64,000 nucleotides of DNA, taken from the NCBI RefSeq assembly GCF_044647545.1, contig NZ_CP172818.1; one strand, given 5' to 3'. Below, one piece after another: positions 39,904-54,668 of this stretch; the first letter of the stretch is position 1, and each line of letters opens with the position of its first letter. Both the position numbers and the translations under genes were made by a program. The notes under the pieces are model-generated. The model saw only the letters and a list, made by a program, of their open reading frames with translations, made no database searches and was not told the DNA's origin. The DNA comes from Escherichia coli. Lineage in GTDB: Bacteria; Pseudomonadota; Gammaproteobacteria; Enterobacterales; Enterobacteriaceae.

Positions 39904-42087
39904 ATGGCGCGTTCCAAAACTGCTCAGCCAAAACACTCACTGCGTAAAATCGCAGTTGTAGTAGCCACAGCGGTTAGCGGCATGTCTGTTTATGCACAGG
40001 CAGCGGTTGAACCGAAAGAAGACACTATCACCGTTACCGCTGCACCTGCGCCGCAAGAAAGCGCATGGGGGCCAGCTGCAACTATTGCGGCGAAGCACTC
40101 TGCTACTGCGACTAAAACGGATACACCAATTGAAAAAACGCCGCAGTCTATTTCGGTTGTGACAAATGAAGAGATGCAGATGCATCAATTTCAGTCTGTA
40201 AAAGAAGCATTAGGTTATACACCTGGCGTTACAGTTAGCAGTCGTGGTGCTTCTAATACATATGATTTTGTTATCATTCGTGGTTTCTCATCTGTTGGCC
40301 TGAATCAAAATAACTACCTTGATGGACTAAAACTTCAGGGCAACTTTTATAACGATGCTGTGATTGATCCTTACATGCTCGAGAGGGTTGAACTGATGCG
40401 TGGGCCGACGTCTGTTCTCTATGGAAAAAGTAATCCTGGTGGGATTATTTCTATGGTGAGTAAGCGCCCGACCACTGACCCCCTGAAAGAAATTCAGTTT
40501 AAAATGGGGACGGATAATCTGTTTCAGACCGGATTCGATTTCAGTGATGCGCTGGATGATAACGGTGAGTTCTCCTACCGTTTGACTGGCCTCGCTCGCT
40601 CAACAAACGAACAGCAGAAAAACTCTGAATCTCAGCGTTATACCATTGCTCCATCATTCTCATGGCGGCCGGACGACAAAACCAATTTAACTTTCCTGTC
40701 CTATTTCCAGAATGAACCAGAAACGGGTTATTACGGTTGGTTGCCGAAAGAGGGGACCGTTGAGCCATTGCCTAATGGTAAGCGTCTACCGACTGACTTC
40801 AATGAAGGTGCGTCGAATAATACATACTCCCGTAACCAGAAAATGGTGGGATATAGTTTTGAACATGGTTTTAATGACACCTTCACCGTGCGTCAGAATC
40901 TGCGTTTCAGTGAAATGAAAACCTCACAGAAAAGTGTTTATGGCCACAGGGATTGCCAGCGATGGTCATACCCTAAACCGCGGGACAGTGGTGGATAATG
41001 AGCGTCTACAAAACTTTAGCGTTGATACCCAACTTGAAAGTAAGTTTGCTACAGGTGACGTCGGGCATACTTTGCTGACAGGGGTAGACTTCATGCGTAT
41101 GCGCAATGATATCAATGCCAGCTTTGGATCTGCACCATCCATCGATCTTTATAACAAATACCATCCTGAATACTTTGCATTTGGTAGCGCAGAGCCATAC
41201 CAGATGAATGAAAGCAAACAAACAGGTATTTATGTTCAGGATCAGGCGGAATGGAATAAATGGGTATTCACTCTGGGGGGGCGCTACGATTGGTCTAAGC
41301 AAGCGACCAAAAACTCTTATACGCCGACTGAAGGTTATATTGAGCGCAATGATCATCAGTTCACCTGGCGCGGTGGTGTAAATTACTTATTCGATAATGG
41401 TATTTCACCTTACTTTAGCTATAGCCAGTCCTTTGAACCGAGTGCTTTCGATCTGGGAACAAGCAACCCGCGCGTTTCCTATAAGCCATCGAAAGGTGAA
41501 CAGTATGAAGCTGGCGTAAAATATGTTCCGAATGATATGCCGGTCGTTGTTACGGGCGCAGTCTATCAATTGACGAAAACAAATAACCTGACAGCAGACC
41601 CAACAAACCCCATTAGCGAAGTCCCGCAGGTGAGATTCGCGCTCGTGGTGTGGAACTTGAAGCAAAAGCGGCGTTAAATGCCAATATTAACTTGACGGCT
41701 TCTTATACCTACACCGATGCGGAATACACCAAAGACACCAATCTCAAAGGTAAAACTCCAGAACAAGTACCGAAGCATATGGCATCTCTCTGGGGGGATT
41801 ATACCTTCAATGAAGGGCCGTTTTCTGGTTTAACATTGGGAACAGGTGGTCGTTTTATTGGTTCCAGCTATGGTGATCCGGCGAACACTTTTAAAGTGGG
41901 TAGCGCAGCTGTAATGGATGCTGTTGTAAAATATGATCTGGCACGCTTTGGTATGGCGGGATCCAGCCTTGCTGTGAACGTCAACAATTTGCTCGATCGT
42001 GAGTATGTTGCCAGTTGCTTCCAGACCTATGGCTGCTTCTGGGGCGCAGAACGTCAGGTCGTTGCAACCGCAACCTTCCGTTTCTAA
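39904..42087 (+). pseudogene. fhuA: Ferrichrome outer membrane transporter / phage T1-T5-phi80 receptor FhuA, disrupted by two compensating 1-nt indels (apparent pseudogene or sequencing error)
   Basis: Three ORFs 39904..40998, 40934..41677, 41650..42087, each with clear FhuA homology; frames 1-2-1; switches near 40941..40950 and 41618..41632; total span is a multiple of 3 (727 codons). Confidence 0.65.
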
Positions 42088-42137: not shown

Positions 42138-42935
42138 ATGCAGGAATACACGAATCATTCCGATACCACTTTTGCACTGCGTAATATCTCCTTTCGTGTG
42201 CCCGGGCGCACGCTTTTGCATCCGCTGTCGTTAACCTTTCCTGCCGGGAAAGTGACCGGTCTGATTGGTCACAACGGTTCTGGTAAATCCACTCTGCTCA
42301 AAATGCTTGGCCGTCATCAGCCGCCGTCGGAAGGGGAGATTCTTCTTGATGCCCAGCCGCTGGAAAGCTGGAGTAGCAAAGCGTTTGCCCGCAAAGTGGC
42401 TTATTTGCCGCAGCAGCTTCCTCCGGCAGAAGGGATGACGGTGCGTGAACTGGTGGCGATTGGTCGTTACCCGTGGCATGGCGCACTAGGGCGCTTTGGT
42501 GCGGCAGATCGCGAAAAGGTCGAGGAAGCTATCTCGCTGGTTGGCTTAAAACCGCTGGCGCATCGGCTGGTCGATAGTCTCTCTGGCGGCGAACGTCAGC
42601 GGGCGTGGATCGCCATGCTGGTGGCGCAGGATAGCCGTTGTCTGTTGCTCGACGAACCGACCTCGGCGCTGGATATCGCCCACCAGGTTGATGTGCTGGC
42701 GCTGGTGCATCGTTTAAGTCAGGAGCGTGGCCTGACGGTCATTGCCGTGCTGCACGATATCAATATGGCTGCGCGTTACTGTGATTATCTGGTCGCCCTG
42801 CGCGGCGGTGAAATGATTGCTCAGGGAACGCCTGCGGAAATTATGCGCGGCGAAACCCTCGAAATGATTTATGGCATCCCGATGGGTATTTTGCCGCATC
42901 CGGCGGGTGCTGCACCTGTGAGTTTTGTTTATTGA
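42138..42935 (+). CDS. fhuC: Iron(III)-hydroxamate ABC transporter ATP-binding protein
   Basis: ORF 42015..42935; start at ATG 42138 (MQEYTNHSDTTFALRNISFRVPG...); Walker A GHNGSGKST; 265 aa. Confidence 0.93.
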   Translation: MQEYTNHSDTTFALRNISFRVPGRTLLHPLSLTFPAGKVTGLIGHNGSGKSTLLKMLGRHQPPSEGEILLDAQPLESWSSKAFARKVAYLPQQLPPAEGMTVRELVAIGRYPWHGALGRFGAADREKVEEAISLVGLKPLAHRLVDSLSGGERQRAWIAMLVAQDSRCLLLDEPTSALDIAHQVDVLALVHRLSQERGLTVIAVLHDINMAARYCDYLVALRGGEMIAQGTPAEIMRGETLEMIYGIPMGILPHPAGAAPVSFVY

Positions 42936-43825
42936 TGAGCGGCTTACCTCTTATTTCGCGCCGTCGACTGTTAACGGCGATGGCGCTTTCTCCGTTGTTA
43001 TGGCAGATGAATACCGCCCACGCGGCGGCTATTGATCCCAATCGTATTGTGGCGCTGGAGTGGTTGCCGGTGGAATTACTGCTGGCGCTCGGCATCGTGC
43101 CTTACGGCGTGGCGGATACCATCAACTATCGCCTGTGGGTCAGCGAACCGCCATTGCCGGACTCAGTGATTGACGTTGGTTTGCGTACAGAACCTAACCT
43201 TGAACTGCTGACCGAAATGAAACCATCGTTTATGGTCTGGTCGGCAGGATATGGCCCTTCACCAGAAATGCTGGCACGTATTGCGCCGGGTCGCGGATTT
43301 AACTTCAGTGACGGCAAACAGCCGCTGGCGATGGCGCGTAAATCACTGACGGAAATGGCAGATTTACTTAACCTGCAAAGCGCAGCAGAAACGCATTTAG
43401 CGCACTATGAAGACTTTATCCGCAGCATGAAACCCCGCTTTGTGAAGCGTGGTGCACGCCCGTTATTGCTGACGACACTTATCGATCCGCGCCATATGTT
43501 GGTCTTCGGTCCAAACAGCCTGTTCCAGGAAATTCTTGATGAGTACGGCATCCCAAATGCCTGGCAAGGGGAAACCAACTTTTGGGGCAGTACCGCCGTC
43601 AGTATCGATCGTCTGGCAGCGTATAAAGACGTTGATGTGCTCTGTTTTGATCACGACAACAGCAAAGACATGGATGCGCTAATGGCAACCCCGCTGTGGC
43701 AGGCCATGCCGTTTGTCCGCGCCGGACGCTTTCAGCGCGTTCCGGCGGTCTGGTTCTATGGTGCGACGCTTTCTGCAATGCACTTTGTGCGTATTCTGGA
43801 TAACGCCATCGGAGGTAAAGCGTGA
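42935..43825 (+). CDS. fhuD: Iron(III)-hydroxamate periplasmic binding protein
   Basis: ORF 42932..43825 (track start is TTG); ATG at 42935 gives MSGLPLISRRRLLTAMALSPLLWQMNTAHA (Tat-type signal); 296 aa. Confidence 0.92.
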   Translation: MSGLPLISRRRLLTAMALSPLLWQMNTAHAAAIDPNRIVALEWLPVELLLALGIVPYGVADTINYRLWVSEPPLPDSVIDVGLRTEPNLELLTEMKPSFMVWSAGYGPSPEMLARIAPGRGFNFSDGKQPLAMARKSLTEMADLLNLQSAAETHLAHYEDFIRSMKPRFVKRGARPLLLTTLIDPRHMLVFGPNSLFQEILDEYGIPNAWQGETNFWGSTAVSIDRLAAYKDVDVLCFDHDNSKDMDALMATPLWQAMPFVRAGRFQRVPAVWFYGATLSAMHFVRILDNAIGGKA

Positions 43826-48888: not shown

Positions 48889-48969
48889 ACGAAATACCAG
48901 GGTATTAGATAATGGCGATTATTATTGGGTTAGAATTTGCCCAATTGCCGATGTCGTTTGGAGCAAAAT

Positions 48970-49314
48970 ATGAGTGATGACGTAGCACTGCCGCTGGAGT
49001 TTACCGACGCAGCAGCCAACAAAGTTAAAAGCCTGATCGCTGACGAAGATAACCCGAATCTGAAATTACGCGTGTATATCACCGGTGGCGGTTGCAGCGG
49101 CTTCCAGTATGGTTTCACCTTTGATGATCAGGTGAACGAAGGCGATATGACCATCGAAAAACAGGGCGTTGGCCTGGTGGTTGATCCGATGAGCCTGCAA
49201 TATCTGGTCGGCGGTTCCGTTGACTATACCGAAGGACTGGAAGGTTCTCGTTTCATCGTGACCAACCCGAACGCGAAAAGCACCTGCGGTTGCGGTTCTT
49301 CCTTTAGCATCTAA
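48970..49314 (+). CDS. erpA: Iron-sulfur cluster insertion protein ErpA (A-type carrier)
   Basis: ORF 48937..49314; start at ATG 48970 ([22 protein letters not shown]...); C-terminal CGCGSSF; 114 aa. Confidence 0.93.
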
Positions 49315-49324
49315 TCTGTTGTTC

Positions 49325-49351
49325 ATGTGCCGGATAAACTATCCGGCACAT
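49325..49351. terminator. Hairpin between convergent erpA and yadS
   Basis: atgtgccggata-aac-tatccggcacat inverted repeat. Confidence 0.6.
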
Positions 49352-49360
49352 CTTCTCTCT

Positions 49361-49984
49361 TCAACGCCCATTCTCATCCAGCGCAAACGTCGGTAGCTTA
49401 AGATGCCAACGAATAGCCGCCAGCCGAATCAATAGCGTCACGACCATGCCCATCATACTGGCTGTTTCCAGTGGTACGGAAAATGTGTAATAAGCCGTAG
49501 CGTGGACAATACCGCCGATAATACAGGCTGTTGCGTAGATTTCTGTACGTAAAATCATGGGGATTTCGCGGGCCAGTACATCACGAATGATCCCGCCGCC
49601 AACGCCAGTAATGACGCCCATACAAACCGCGATTAACGGACCGGCTTCCGCATTAAAGGCTTTATTCACGCCAATGCCGACAAACACCGCCAGACCAACG
49701 GCGTCCAGCACCGGCAACATCCATTTTGGTAAGCGTCTTGGCTGGCGCACCAGCACGATGGTCAGCATGCTGGTGACCATTGCAACGACCAGATCGGTGG
49801 GATCTTTCACCCAAAATACCGGGCCGTGATCCAGCGCCATGTCGCGAATTGTTCCGCCGCCTACTGCGGTAACCACGCCCAATACCAGTACACCAAAAGG
49901 GTCCATACGCAATTTTCCGGCTAACAAAACGCCAGAGATAGCAAATACCGCTGTGCCGACTATATCCAGCCAATAGACGAGCAT
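49361..49984 (-). CDS. yadS: UPF0126 family inner membrane protein
   Basis: ORF 207 aa, polytopic, two internal repeats with GGGxIRD motif. Confidence 0.88.
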   Translation of the reverse strand: MLVYWLDIVGTAVFAISGVLLAGKLRMDPFGVLVLGVVTAVGGGTIRDMALDHGPVFWVKDPTDLVVAMVTSMLTIVLVRQPRRLPKWMLPVLDAVGLAVFVGIGVNKAFNAEAGPLIAVCMGVITGVGGGIIRDVLAREIPMILRTEIYATACIIGGIVHATAYYTFSVPLETASMMGMVVTLLIRLAAIRWHLKLPTFALDENGR

Positions 49985-50021
49985 TGTTCAATCCCCACTG
50001 AGCACCTGAAAAGGTCAGGCA

Positions 50022-50822
50022 CTAATCTACCTGTGAAAGCGCATTACAGAGCTGTTGTGCAGCGAGGATAATACGTGGGCTTGCACGTTCAAACCAGTCA
50101 CTCGTGAGAGGAATAACGGGAATTTTGAGCTGTTCACCCCAGTATTGTTTGATTTTAGGAATTTGGTCCGATCCGCCTGTAATGACAATCGCCTGTGGCG
50201 AGCGTGCTAACACCTGTTCACGGCTAACTTGCGGCCAGGGAACCCGGCTGTCTTTAAAGATGTTTTCTCCGCCACAAACTTCGAGTACCTGGTTTTGAAT
50301 CGACTCTTTTCCACTGGTAAATGGCGGATTAATGCCGAATTGCAGAAAAACACGTTTTTTAGGTTTATCAGCATATTGCGCTTTCAATTGCGCGTACTGA
50401 TCCAGCAGGGATTGCGCGGCTTGTTCGGCCTTATCCGGTTGCGGACTCCAGGGGGCCAGTTGACGTAACGCATTGGCAATTTGTTCAATGCTTGTCGCAT
50501 CGACCCACATCACTTTTATTCCCAGCGAAGCCAGCTGGTCAACCTGCCGCTCGGCATTACCTCCACGCCAGGCAATCACCAGATCGGGTTTCAGCGCGAC
50601 AATGCGTTCCAGATTCATCCCCTGCCAGGTGGAAACCTGCTCAATCTTTTGCGCTTGTGGAGGATAGTCGGAATAGCTGCTGACCCCAACCGGCGTGATC
50701 CCGGCGGCAAAGGCAAGTTCAGTGTTGGCGGGAGAAAGCGTGATGACGCGCGGCGCGGCATTGAGCCACAGCGGCGCGAGAAAAGACAGGGCGACCAGCG
50801 CCCTGAACAGTGACTTAGCCAT
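50022..50822 (-). CDS. btuF: Vitamin B12 periplasmic binding protein
   Basis: ORF 50022..50849; start at ATG 50822 ([30 protein letters not shown]...); 266 aa; start overlaps mtn 3' end by 8 nt. Confidence 0.9.
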
Positions 50823-51513
50823 GTGCCAGTTTCTGCACCAGTGACTCAACCATCAGGCTGGACTGTTTAGCGGCAACAGCCAGGAACTCATCGAAGCTAA
50901 GATGAGACTGTTGATCGGCCACGTCGGAGATGGCGCGTACTACGACAAACGGGACGTTGAAATTGTGGCAGACATGGGCGATTGCCGTCGCTTCCATCTC
51001 TACAGCAATGGCCTGTGGGAAGTTGTGGCGGATTTTCGCCAGACCAACAGAACCGTTGATGAATGCGTCGCCGCTAACAATCAGGCCACGTACAGCGTTA
51101 AGATTCAGTTCGGCAATGCAGGCCTCAGCGGCAGCGATCAGTTTATCGTCAGCTTTAAAGCCTGCCGGGCAGCCTGGTAACTGGCCGTATTCATAACCAA
51201 ATGCCGTGACATCCGCGTCGTGATAACGAGCTTCGTCCGAGACAACGATATCGCCCACTTTCAGCGTTGGTGCCAGGCCACCGGCAGAACCGGTGTTAAT
51301 AATCACATCTGGCTTGCAGTGTTCCAACAGCAGAGTGGCACCCAGCGCCGCAGCGACTTTACCGATGCCCGATTTCAGAAGCGCAACCTCGGTTCCATTC
51401 AGTTGGCCGGTATAGATTTCGCAACCGCCCAGACTGATAGTTTGACGGTTTTCGATTTTGTCACGCAGCAGCGTAACTTCTTCTTCCATTGCACCAATGA
51501 TGCCGATTTTCAT
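50815..51513 (-). CDS. mtn: 5'-methylthioadenosine / S-adenosylhomocysteine nucleosidase
   Basis: ORF 232 aa [40 protein letters not shown]... Confidence 0.95.
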
Positions 51514-51596
51514 AGATTTACTCGCGATAAGCCCGATTTGAAGGCATAGTTTACCATGCGCTTACGGGGAAGCGTATTTCTCACGCGGGAGAGGAC

Positions 51597-53114
51597 ATGG
51601 CACAGATTGATTTCCGAAAAAAAATAAACTGGCATCGTCGTTACCGTTCACCACAGGGCGTTAAAACCGAACATGAGATCCTGCGGATCTTCGAGAGCGA
51701 TCGCGGGCGTATCATCAACTCTCCGGCAATTCGTCGTCTGCAACAAAAGACCCAGGTTTTTCCACTGGAGCGCAATGCCGCCGTGCGCACGCGTCTTACC
51801 CACTCGATGGAAGTCCAGCAGGTGGGGCGTTATATCGCTAAAGAGATTTTAAGCCGCCTGAAAGAGCTTAAATTACTGGAGGCGTATGGTCTCGATGAAC
51901 TGACCGGGCCCTTTGAAAGCATTGTTGAGATGTCATGCCTGATGCACGATATCGGCAATCCGCCGTTTGGTCATTTTGGCGAAGCGGCGATAAATGACTG
52001 GTTTCGCCAGCGTTTGCACCCGGAAGATGCCGAAAGCCAGCCTCTGACTGACGATCGCTGCAGCGTGGCAGCACTACGTTTACGGGACGGGGAAGAACCG
52101 CTTAACGAGCTGCGGCGCAAAATACGTCAGGACTTATGTCATTTTGAGGGGAATGCACAAGGCATTCGTCTGGTGCATACATTGATGCGGATGAATCTCA
52201 CCTGGGCGCAGGTTGGCGGTATTTTAAAATATACCCGTCCAGCGTGGTGGCGTGGCGAAACGCCTGAGACACATCACTATTTAATGAAAAAGCCGGGTTA
52301 TTATCTTTCTGAAGAAGCCTATATTGCCCGGTTGCGTAAAGAACTTAATTTGGCGCTTTACAGTCGTTTTCCATTAACGTGGATTATGGAAGCTGCCGAC
52401 GACATCTCCTATTGTGTGGCAGACCTTGAAGATGCGGTAGAGAAAAGGATATTTACCGTTGAGCAGCTTTATCATCATTTGCACGAGGCGTGGGGCCAGC
52501 ATGAGAAAGGTTCGCTCTTTTCGCTGGTGGTTGAAAATGCCTGGGAAAAATCACGCTCAAATAGTTTAAGCCGCAGTACGGAAGACCAGTTTTTTATGTA
52601 TTTACGGGTAAACACTCTAAATAAACTGGTACCCTACGCGGCACAACGATTTATTGATAATCTGCCTGCGATTTTCGCCGGAACGTTTAATCATGCATTA
52701 TTGGAAGATGCCAGCGAATGCAGCGATCTTCTTAAGCTTTATAAAAATGTCGCTGTAAAACATGTGTTTAGCCATCCAGATGTCGAGCAGCTTGAATTGC
52801 AGGGCTATCGGGTCATTAGCGGATTATTAGAGATTTATCGCCCTTTATTAAGCCTGTCGTTATCAGACTTTACTGAACTGGTAGAAAAAGAACGGGTGAA
52901 ACGTTTCCCTATTGAATCGCGCTTATTCCACAAACTCTCGACGCGCCATCGGCTGGCCTATGTCGAGGCTGTCAGTAAATTACCGTCAGATTCTCCTGAG
53001 TTTCCGCTATGGGAATATTATTACCGTTGCCGCCTGCTGCAGGATTATATCAGCGGTATGACCGACCTCTATGCGTGGGATGAATACCGACGTCTGATGG
53101 CCGTAGAACAATAA
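51597..53114 (+). CDS. dgt: Deoxyguanosinetriphosphate triphosphohydrolase (dGTPase)
   Basis: ORF 505 aa; HD-domain motif [11 protein letters not shown]...[12 protein letters not shown]. Confidence 0.95.
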
Positions 53115-53198: not shown

Positions 53199-53243
53199 AG
53201 AACACAGCAATTTTGCGTTATCTGTTAATCGAGACTGAAATAC

Positions 53244-54668
53244 ATGAAAAAAACCACATTAGCACTGAGTGCACTGGCTCTGAGTTTAGGTTTGGCGTTA
53301 TCTCCGCTCTCTGCAACGGCGGCTGAGACTTCTTCAGCAACGACAGCCCAGCAGATGCCAAGCCTTGCACCGATGCTCGAAAAGGTGATGCCTTCAGTGG
53401 TCAGCATTAACGTAGAAGGTAGCACAACCGTTAATACGCCGCGTATGCCGCGTAATTTCCAGCAGTTCTTCGGTGATGATTCTCCGTTCTGCCAGGAAGG
53501 TTCTCCGTTCCAGAGTTCTCCGTTCTGCCAGGGTGGCCAGGGCGGTAATGGTGGCGGCCAGCAACAGAAATTCATGGCGCTGGGTTCCGGCGTCATCATT
53601 GATGCCGATAAAGGCTATGTCGTCACCAACAACCACGTTGTTGATAACGCGACGGTGATTAAAGTCCAACTGAGCGATGGCCGTAAGTTCGACGCGAAGA
53701 TGGTTGGCAAAGATCCGCGCTCTGATATCGCGCTGATCCAGATCCAGAACCCGAAAAACCTGACCGCAATTAAGATGGCGGATTCTGATGCACTGCGCGT
53801 GGGTGATTACACCGTAGCGATTGGTAACCCGTTTGGTCTGGGCGAGACGGTAACTTCCGGGATTGTCTCTGCGCTGGGGCGTAGCGGCCTGAATGCCGAA
53901 AACTACGAAAACTTCATCCAGACCGATGCAGCGATTAACCGTGGTAACTCCGGTGGTGCGCTGGTTAACCTGAACGGTGAACTGATCGGTATCAACACCG
54001 CGATCCTCGCACCGGACGGCGGCAACATCGGTATCGGTTTTGCTATCCCGAGCAACATGGTGAAAAACCTGACCTCGCAGATGGTGGAATACGGCCAGGT
54101 GAAACGCGGTGAGTTGGGTATTATGGGCACTGAGCTGAACTCCGATCTGGCGAAAGCGATGAAAGTTGACGCCCAGCGCGGTGCTTTCGTAAGCCAGGTT
54201 CTGCCGAATTCTTCCGCCGCGAAAGCGGGCATTAAAGCGGGTGATGTGATCACCTCACTGAACGGTAAGCCAATCAGCAGCTTTGCCGCACTGCGTGCTC
54301 AGGTGGGCACTATGCCGGTAGGTAGCAAACTGACCCTGGGCTTATTGCGCGACGGGAAGCAGGTTAACGTGAACCTGGAACTTCAGCAGAGCAGCCAGAA
54401 TCAGGTTGATTCCAGCACCATCTTCAACGGCATTGAAGGCGCTGAGATGAGCAACAAAGGCAAAGATCAGGGCGTGGTAGTGAACAACGTGAAAACGGGC
54501 ACTCCGGCTGCGCAGATCGGCCTGAAGAAAGGTGATGTGATTATTGGCGCGAACCAGCAGGCAGTGAAAAACATCGCTGAACTGCGTAAAGTTCTCGACA
54601 GCAAACCGTCTGTGCTGGCACTGAACATTCAGCGCGGCGACAGCACCATCTACCTGTTAATGCAGTAA
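53244..54668 (+). CDS. degP: Periplasmic serine endoprotease / chaperone DegP (HtrA)
   Basis: ORF 474 aa; signal peptide, catalytic GNSGGAL, two PDZ domains. Confidence 0.95.
   Translation: MKKTTLALSALALSLGLALSPLSATAAETSSATTAQQMPSLAPMLEKVMPSVVSINVEGSTTVNTPRMPRNFQQFFGDDSPFCQEGSPFQSSPFCQGGQGGNGGGQQQKFMALGSGVIIDADKGYVVTNNHVVDNATVIKVQLSDGRKFDAKMVGKDPRSDIALIQIQNPKNLTAIKMADSDALRVGDYTVAIGNPFGLGETVTSGIVSALGRSGLNAENYENFIQTDAAINRGNSGGALVNLNGELIGINTAILAPDGGNIGIGFAIPSNMVKNLTSQMVEYGQVKRGELGIMGTELNSDLAKAMKVDAQRGAFVSQVLPNSSAAKAGIKAGDVITSLNGKPISSFAALRAQVGTMPVGSKLTLGLLRDGKQVNVNLELQQSSQNQVDSSTIFNGIEGAEMSNKGKDQGVVVNNVKTGTPAAQIGLKKGDVIIGANQQAVKNIAELRKVLDSKPSVLALNIQRGDSTIYLLMQ

Follow-up and report, generated by a model that had tools for sequence, protein, structure and literature searches.

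The window, that is, the whole stretch of DNA analysed here, comprises 64,000 nt of an Escherichia coli chromosome, from lpdA to tsf, and comes from a strain other than K-12. Gene coordinates were those of the RefSeq annotation of strain FDAARGOS_497, carried over at an identity of about 99.9% over the whole window; all transferred genes were intact save fhuA and a yadM-like fimbrial gene, and rpnC together with a neighbouring hypothetical gene could not be mapped in the transfer. Positions 49000-53000 were matched by BLAST in 5,424 of 5,426 complete E. coli genomes, with a top identity of 100%. Overlapping junctions were found at six of the 40 co-directional adjacent gene pairs (15%), with sizes of 1, 4 or 8 nt only (ATGA twice, GTGA and TGATG once each, 8 nt twice), and the identical six are present in the curated annotation of K-12 MG1655. 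The junctions, and the two genes that meet at mtn/btuF, are the following (SD, Shine-Dalgarno).

16150-16153, plus strand: yadG/yadH, a 4-nt ATGA overlap with a strong SD (AAGGAG) within yadG; identical in K-12.
30251-30254, minus strand: pcnB/folK, a 4-nt ATGA overlap with a moderate SD (GAGG).
42933-42937, plus strand: fhuC/fhuD, a TGATG junction with a 1-nt overlap (base 42935) and no SD; identical in K-12.
43822-43825, plus strand: fhuD/fhuB, a 4-nt GTGA overlap with a GTG start and a strong SD (GGAGGT) within fhuD.
48970-48977, plus strand: yadW/erpA, an 8-nt overlap, ATGAGTGA, between yadW (48912-48977) and erpA (48970-49314); the same in the K-12 annotation.
50815-50822, minus strand: mtn/btuF, an 8-nt overlap, ATGGCTAA, present in the sequence, in the annotation transfer and in the K-12 annotation.
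50815-51513, minus strand: mtn (mtnN/pfs), a coding sequence of 232 aa for 5'-methylthioadenosine/S-adenosylhomocysteine nucleosidase.
50022-50822, minus strand: btuF, a coding sequence of 266 aa for the periplasmic vitamin B12-binding protein, with an N-terminal signal peptide.

Five of these junctions (mtn/btuF, yadG/yadH, folK/pcnB, fhuC/fhuD and fhuD/fhuB) had been named in a sequence-only reading of the window, and all five overlap both in the sequence and in the K-12 annotation; the 8-nt yadW/erpA overlap is a sixth, absent from that list. The same reading had described several of the overlaps as ATGA-type. The description is literally correct for yadG/yadH and pcnB/folK and holds for fhuD/fhuB (GTGA) in the wider NTGA sense; it does not apply to fhuC/fhuD, which is a TGATG junction with a 1-nt overlap. 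In the pcnB/folK pair the upstream member is pcnB, and a pcnB-folK transcription unit is documented (PMC4161252).

At the mtn/btuF junction the minus strand reads ...CTGGCACATGGCTAAGTCACTG... The 3' end of mtn is CTG GCA CAT GGC TAA, with the TAA stop at 50817-50815, and the 5' end of btuF is ATG GCT AAG TCA, with the ATG at 50822-50820, an exact match to the claim that btuF starts 8 nt inside the 3' end of mtn (50815-50822). The two genes encode functionally unrelated proteins. A consensus scan of the mtn strand returned no sigma-70-like match, and the overlap leaves no intergenic space for a promoter. The six overlaps are genuine and rightly positioned; they are typical of bacterial operons and belong to a kind already known.

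Start codons and Shine-Dalgarno sites at the overlaps

The overlaps could be artefacts of annotation, with true starts lying further downstream and genes that do not overlap. In-frame starts that would remove the overlap do exist in four genes, namely the GTG at codon 3 of folK, the GTG at codon 7 of yadH, the GTG at codon 10 of fhuB and the ATG at codon 16 of fhuD (the last three lying 6, 9 and 15 codons in). At btuF, however, the 40 codons that follow the annotated ATG contain no in-frame ATG, GTG or TTG in the window, and the possibility raised by the sequence-only reading, that alternative start codons remove the overlaps, fails there; a still later start is implausible because the signal peptide would be deleted. 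The sole other candidate for btuF is a TTG 27 nt upstream, which is found in only some species and would lengthen the overlap. For folK, at least 19 solved PDB entries of HPPK begin at Thr2 of the ORF, in agreement with the ATG start. The alternative start of fhuD would drop the SRRRLL twin-arginine signal region, and the curated K-12 annotation agrees on all six starts. Two near alternatives alter the overlap and do not abolish it: a second ATG one codon downstream in yadH would still leave 1 nt, and a TTG at 42932, one codon upstream of the fhuD start, would make that overlap 4 nt. The choice of start for fhuD, fhuB, yadH and erpA rests on annotation and N-terminal features only.

The position of the btuF start was followed through the btuF loci of 80 species-representative genomes (69-98% BtuF identity), a set that includes Escherichia, Salmonella, Citrobacter, Enterobacter, Klebsiella, Kluyvera, Kosakonia, Lelliottia, Leclercia, Raoultella and others. 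In all 80 of these Enterobacteriaceae species the start codon lies exactly 8 nt inside mtn, as ATG in 29 and as GTG in 51, and the junction pattern [A/G]TG-NN-TA[A/G] (RTGNNTAR) is kept in 80/80. Codon 231 of Mtn is limited to NAT or NGT across the set; codons 3-6 of btuF vary freely. Judged from these sequences, conservation of the -8 start exceeds chance, and its fixity in every species while ATG and GTG interchange points to selection on the position of the btuF start relative to the stop.

Overlap-removing starts were accordingly rejected, as there is none for btuF and those in the other genes are implausible. The artefact reading is thus highly improbable for the overlaps at large, and for btuF it is largely refuted. 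The start-codon choices in the window proved sound, on the evidence of the 80 species for btuF and of the HPPK chains at Thr2 for folK, and the start codons are confirmed as correctly placed. The start of pcnB itself, at 31646-31648 on the minus strand, is annotated as ATT in RefSeq and has a moderate SD upstream (-7.2 kcal/mol); this is the AUU start for which poly(A) polymerase I is known.

Shine-Dalgarno strength was scored for all 55 genes of the window as the best pairing of the 21 nt upstream of the start with the 16S rRNA tail (anti-SD duplex). The median duplex energy in the window was -5.2 kcal/mol. Values for btuF (-2.8 kcal/mol, at a useless spacing of 13 nt) and fhuD (-2.2 kcal/mol) were among the weakest, those for fhuB (-10.8 kcal/mol) and yadH (-8.5 kcal/mol) among the strongest, and those for folK (-6.2 kcal/mol) and erpA (-5.6 kcal/mol) average. 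Of the six downstream genes, only btuF and fhuD are without a Shine-Dalgarno site, and they are for that reason the best candidates for dependence on upstream translation. Both probably rely mainly on ribosomes coming from the upstream gene; yadH and fhuB, and less markedly folK and erpA, probably can also initiate independently from their own SD inside the upstream gene.

The sequence-only reading had called such overlaps ordinary for operons, a judgement that stands, as co-directional spacings in prokaryotes are enriched in three classes, -4, -1 and -8 nt. These spacings have been linked to coupling by termination and reinitiation (PMC10666635; PMC12548453). According to the latter, a 2025 review, -4 (NTGA) is by far the commonest co-directional spacing, -1 and -8 (NTGNNTGA) are also enriched, and lengthening the overlap weakens coupling more quickly than lengthening the spacing does. 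A survey of 1,695 genomes gave the ranking -4 > -1 > -8 and found re-initiation to be less efficient at -8 (PMC10666635).

We consider it very probable that the junctions of the window are ordinary short start/stop overlaps between co-transcribed neighbours of the core genome and work by termination-reinitiation. A ribosome that ends the upstream gene would already be only a few nucleotides away from the next start and could re-initiate there; at mtn/btuF the P site would need only a 2-nt backward slip, from GGC to AUG. Lacking a Shine-Dalgarno site, btuF and fhuD would probably depend most on such re-initiation, and yadH and fhuB, less so folK and erpA, would probably be served by independent initiation too. 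Coupling, its efficiency and the interplay of btuF translation with the hairpin described below are what we infer from the sequence. The coupling interpretation is reasonable, but it holds unevenly from pair to pair.

The overlaps might also be a by-product of genome compaction and easy mutation, with downstream genes started de novo by free 30S and with no coupling. This account draws on the start codon supplying three of the four NTGA bases, and on yadH, fhuB, folK and erpA each having an SD within the upstream gene. Also in its favour, the yadW/erpA overlap motif, kept in 78 of 79 species, is kept simply because ErpA begins Met-Ser-Asp, even where a YadW-like ORF is lacking; the 21-aa YadW-like ORF is found in only part of the species (Escherichia, Salmonella, some Citrobacter and a few others). 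Matched amounts of the unrelated products of mtn/btuF and pcnB/folK, moreover, bring no obvious benefit. Against it stand btuF and fhuD, which are essentially without an SD, and the btuF start, which stays at -8 in every species while its codon is swapped. Experimental work on E. coli speaks on both sides: four of the five overlapping pairs tested by Huber et al. (2019) were coupled, whereas bioBF, one of the five, initiated de novo despite a weak SD. We regard the compaction account as unlikely, and termination-reinitiation is retained as the reading of the six junctions.

Unmasking of the downstream start by unfolding of the RNA is a further route to coupling. In folds of 100 nt surrounding each junction, none of the six was more stable than shuffled sequence (z from +0.96 to -1.22). 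As no junction had a significant z-score, RNA structure masking the downstream starts was rejected as a general explanation, and the unfolding route is unsupported since the junctions fold no better than shuffled RNA. In practical terms, polar effects on btuF and fhuD are to be expected from deletions or insertions in mtn or fhuC; the result matters little beyond good annotation.

Frameshifted fhuA and other features of the window

The fhu junctions lie downstream of a disrupted gene.

39904-42087, plus strand: fhuA, frameshifted by an extra C at 40944; the ORF stops at 40998.

The fhuA ORF of the window has 364 aa, of which the first 347 are identical to a 729-aa FhuA, and the frame is regained only near 41626. 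The gene has also lost 9 nt near 41310 and gained 3 nt at 41459. Neither variant stretch of fhuA had an exact match among 5,426 complete E. coli genomes. The gene could be a strain-specific pseudogene, arisen for example through phage resistance, or the frameshift could be an error of sequencing. Apart from those in fhuA, yadM and the rpnC region, the indels relative to the closest genome (at 463, 11282, 56032 and 62932) are all intergenic, which argues that the window is clean sequence and that its frameshifts are not random errors but real. Upstream of fhuC, about 1.1 kb of RNA would go untranslated, and expression of fhuCDB could be reduced through Rho. The sequence-only reading had considered the overlaps relevant to fhu polarity; for polarity and expression of fhu in this window, the frameshifted fhuA is more direct and more consequential than the overlaps.

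Terminator-like hairpins were noted at 42195-42212 (plus strand), 57 nt into fhuC, and at 42903-42919 (plus strand), just before the fhuC stop. Such hairpins in the fhu operon were rejected as candidates, their count (13) showing no excess over shuffled sequence (8.2 ± 3.0). In the Term-seq 3'-end tables of PMC7815308, the entries for fhuA, fhuC, fhuD, fhuB, folK and yadH were limited to two Rho-region rows for fhuB.

Four other features were recorded. The yadM-like fimbrial gene (24760-25330, minus strand) carries an AT insertion at 25140 and a 1-nt deletion at 25149 relative to the reference; the resulting frameshift gives ten internal stops in the annotated frame, and this member of the yad fimbrial operon is probably a pseudogene. 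In the rpnC (yadD) region (19416-20340, plus strand), reference sequence between rpnC and panC is missing from the window, and the rpnC ORF, with 259 aa, is shorter than the 310 aa of the reference and the 300 aa of K-12. Two known RNA elements scored above the Rfam gathering score: the t44 RNA upstream of rpsB (62086-62172, plus strand, 83.5 bits) and the HtrA 5' UTR thermometer upstream of degP (53204-53249, plus strand, 77 bits).

Hairpin and mtn RNA 3' end inside btuF

Shortly beyond the mtn/btuF overlap, a further element lies within btuF.

50777-50805, minus strand: a terminator-like element in btuF codons 6-15, from a consensus scan and K-12 Term-seq 3' ends.

The hairpin, CAGGGCG-CUGGU-CGCCCUG at 50805-50787 (minus strand), is followed by UCUUUUCUCG. 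In the consensus scan it has a 7-bp stem with six G-C pairs, a 5-nt loop and a U-tract directly after the stem. Its start, at +18 from the btuF AUG, is 9 nt past the mtn stop, roughly where a ribosome halted on that stop would have its leading edge.

An RNA 3' end was predicted near K-12 positions 178,417-178,425 before Term-seq data were consulted. The supplements of PMC7815308 list minus-strand 3' ends in K-12 at 178423 and 178421, classed as 'primary: mtn; internal: btuF', with read counts of about 46,000 and 59,000. These correspond to window positions 50783 and 50781, 40-42 nt into btuF and 4-6 nt past the stem; they come from K-12, a strain other than that of the window. In supplementary files 1 and 3, the mtn 3' end has a Rho score of 1.37 and is marked 'No' for a Rho termination region (PMC7815308). 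The listed intrinsic-terminator score is 2.32, under the cut-off of 3.0, and coverage in the Rho analysis is 106 upstream and 75 downstream. Three btuF rows in the three-condition table suggest that the 3' end occurs in all three growth conditions. The supplements of two other Term-seq studies gave no usable mtn or btuF entry, and a literature search on a btuF/pfs terminator returned nothing relevant.

In K-12, part of the mtn RNA thus ends inside btuF, and the cause could be weak intrinsic termination or a processed end protected by the hairpin. Since the score is below the cut-off and the ends lie only 4-6 nt past the stem, a processing product is possible rather than a termination site; ends at that distance fit trimming after termination and protection from exonuclease alike. 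Because of this K-12 end, 40-42 nt into the downstream gene, mtn/btuF differs from a simple operon junction.

At the same distance, 63 of the 80 species have a hairpin with an energy of -8 kcal/mol or better. In some lineages its 5' arm lies in a different codon phase (ACA-GGG-CTG in Kluyvera, CAG-GGC in the loci L071 and L078). Only 11 of the 80, mainly Escherichia, have a good U-tract (6 or more T in 9 nt) after it. Because some lineages are shifted by 1 nt in the alignment, tests were made per sequence: in 95% of species, synonymous recodings folded less stably than the native hairpin (mean z -1.25), and this signal ranked first of 15 btuF windows, the next having -1.06. Column-wise covariation in the 81-sequence alignment was 0.081, compared with 0.079 after shuffling (175 of 500 shuffles reached the observed value), and the RNAalifold consensus for the hairpin was negligible (-2.2 kcal/mol). 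Taken from these sequences, the indications of selection for the hairpin are suggestive.

The hairpin and U-tract mark an in-vivo 3' end of mtn RNA inside btuF, so that some transcripts encode Mtn only, and BtuF would be made solely from read-through transcripts. Synthesis of BtuF by inefficient re-initiation at -8 would fit a low BtuF-to-Mtn output. The 3' end shows that genes may overlap without forming a simple operon: mtn-only and read-through transcripts coexist, which could explain differing levels of Mtn and BtuF, and mtn/btuF would be a compact test case for the interplay of re-initiation and termination.

The hairpin may, on a rather doubtful view, be a translation-sensitive attenuator. 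A re-initiating ribosome close behind RNA polymerase would melt it and allow read-through; without re-initiation, transcription would stop and only Mtn would be encoded, in principle as at pyrBI and rph-pyrE. The start of the hairpin, 9 nt past one codon and at +18 from the other, would place it at the edge of a ribosome on either, and the 3' end in vivo is not Rho-dependent. A hairpin at the same distance recurs in most genera, including the lineages with a different codon phase, and its strength relative to synonymous recodings in nearly all species also speaks for this view. The argument is, however, purely inferential. The terminator score of 2.32 is weak, and the U-tract is poor outside Escherichia and a few other taxa; the tabulated coverage differs only modestly (106 and 75), suggesting a leaky site. 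The alignment, moreover, gives no covariation support, and the recoding signal is no clear outlier.

A broader proposal, to which we assign a still lower probability, would make one control unit of the hairpin and the fixed 8-nt overlap. The hairpin would end most mtn transcripts, or block the forward sliding of post-termination ribosomes and so favour their 2-nt fall-back onto the btuF start, or do both, and re-initiating ribosomes would melt it. If this were true, BtuF output would be set jointly by re-initiation and read-through, making a translation-gated attenuator in an overlapping gene. The ordinary reading of the junction, an overlap that works by termination-reinitiation, is the one preferred here.

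Comparison with known overlaps and attenuators

The junctions of the window share spacings, motifs and operon context with textbook overlaps (Huber et al., 2019, 2023; Brown and Wade, 2025), from which they show no structural difference. The -4 NTGA, -1 TGATG/TAATG and -8 NTGNNTGA classes are all represented, and the overlapping fraction of 15% agrees with the approximately 15% of co-directional pairs found in most prokaryotic groups. Short overlaps are 4.5-fold enriched in E. coli for subunits of the same complex (PMC10666635); yadGH and fhuCDB, which encode ABC-transporter subunits, fit this class, whereas mtn/btuF and pcnB/folK, with their unrelated proteins, do not.

The mtn 3' end is among the ORF- and operon-internal ends catalogued by Term-seq (Adams et al., 2021), with which it shares a GC-rich hairpin, a U-tract and the lack of Rho dependence. 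It differs from them in lying within an overlapping downstream ORF, 40-42 nt beyond the start codon of that ORF, and below the intrinsic-terminator cut-off; its entries are in the supplementary tables of the study. As a finding it is a modest curiosity, already present in the catalogue.

The pyrBI and rph-pyrE operons of E. coli are translation-coupled attenuators. They differ from mtn/btuF, where a nucleotide-sensing pause site or regulatory signal is not known. The likeness lies in a terminator hairpin just beyond or inside a translated ORF, placed such that hairpin formation could depend on where the leading ribosome stands. By analogy with pyrBI and rph-pyrE, translation of btuF might, speculatively, gate read-through in the same way.
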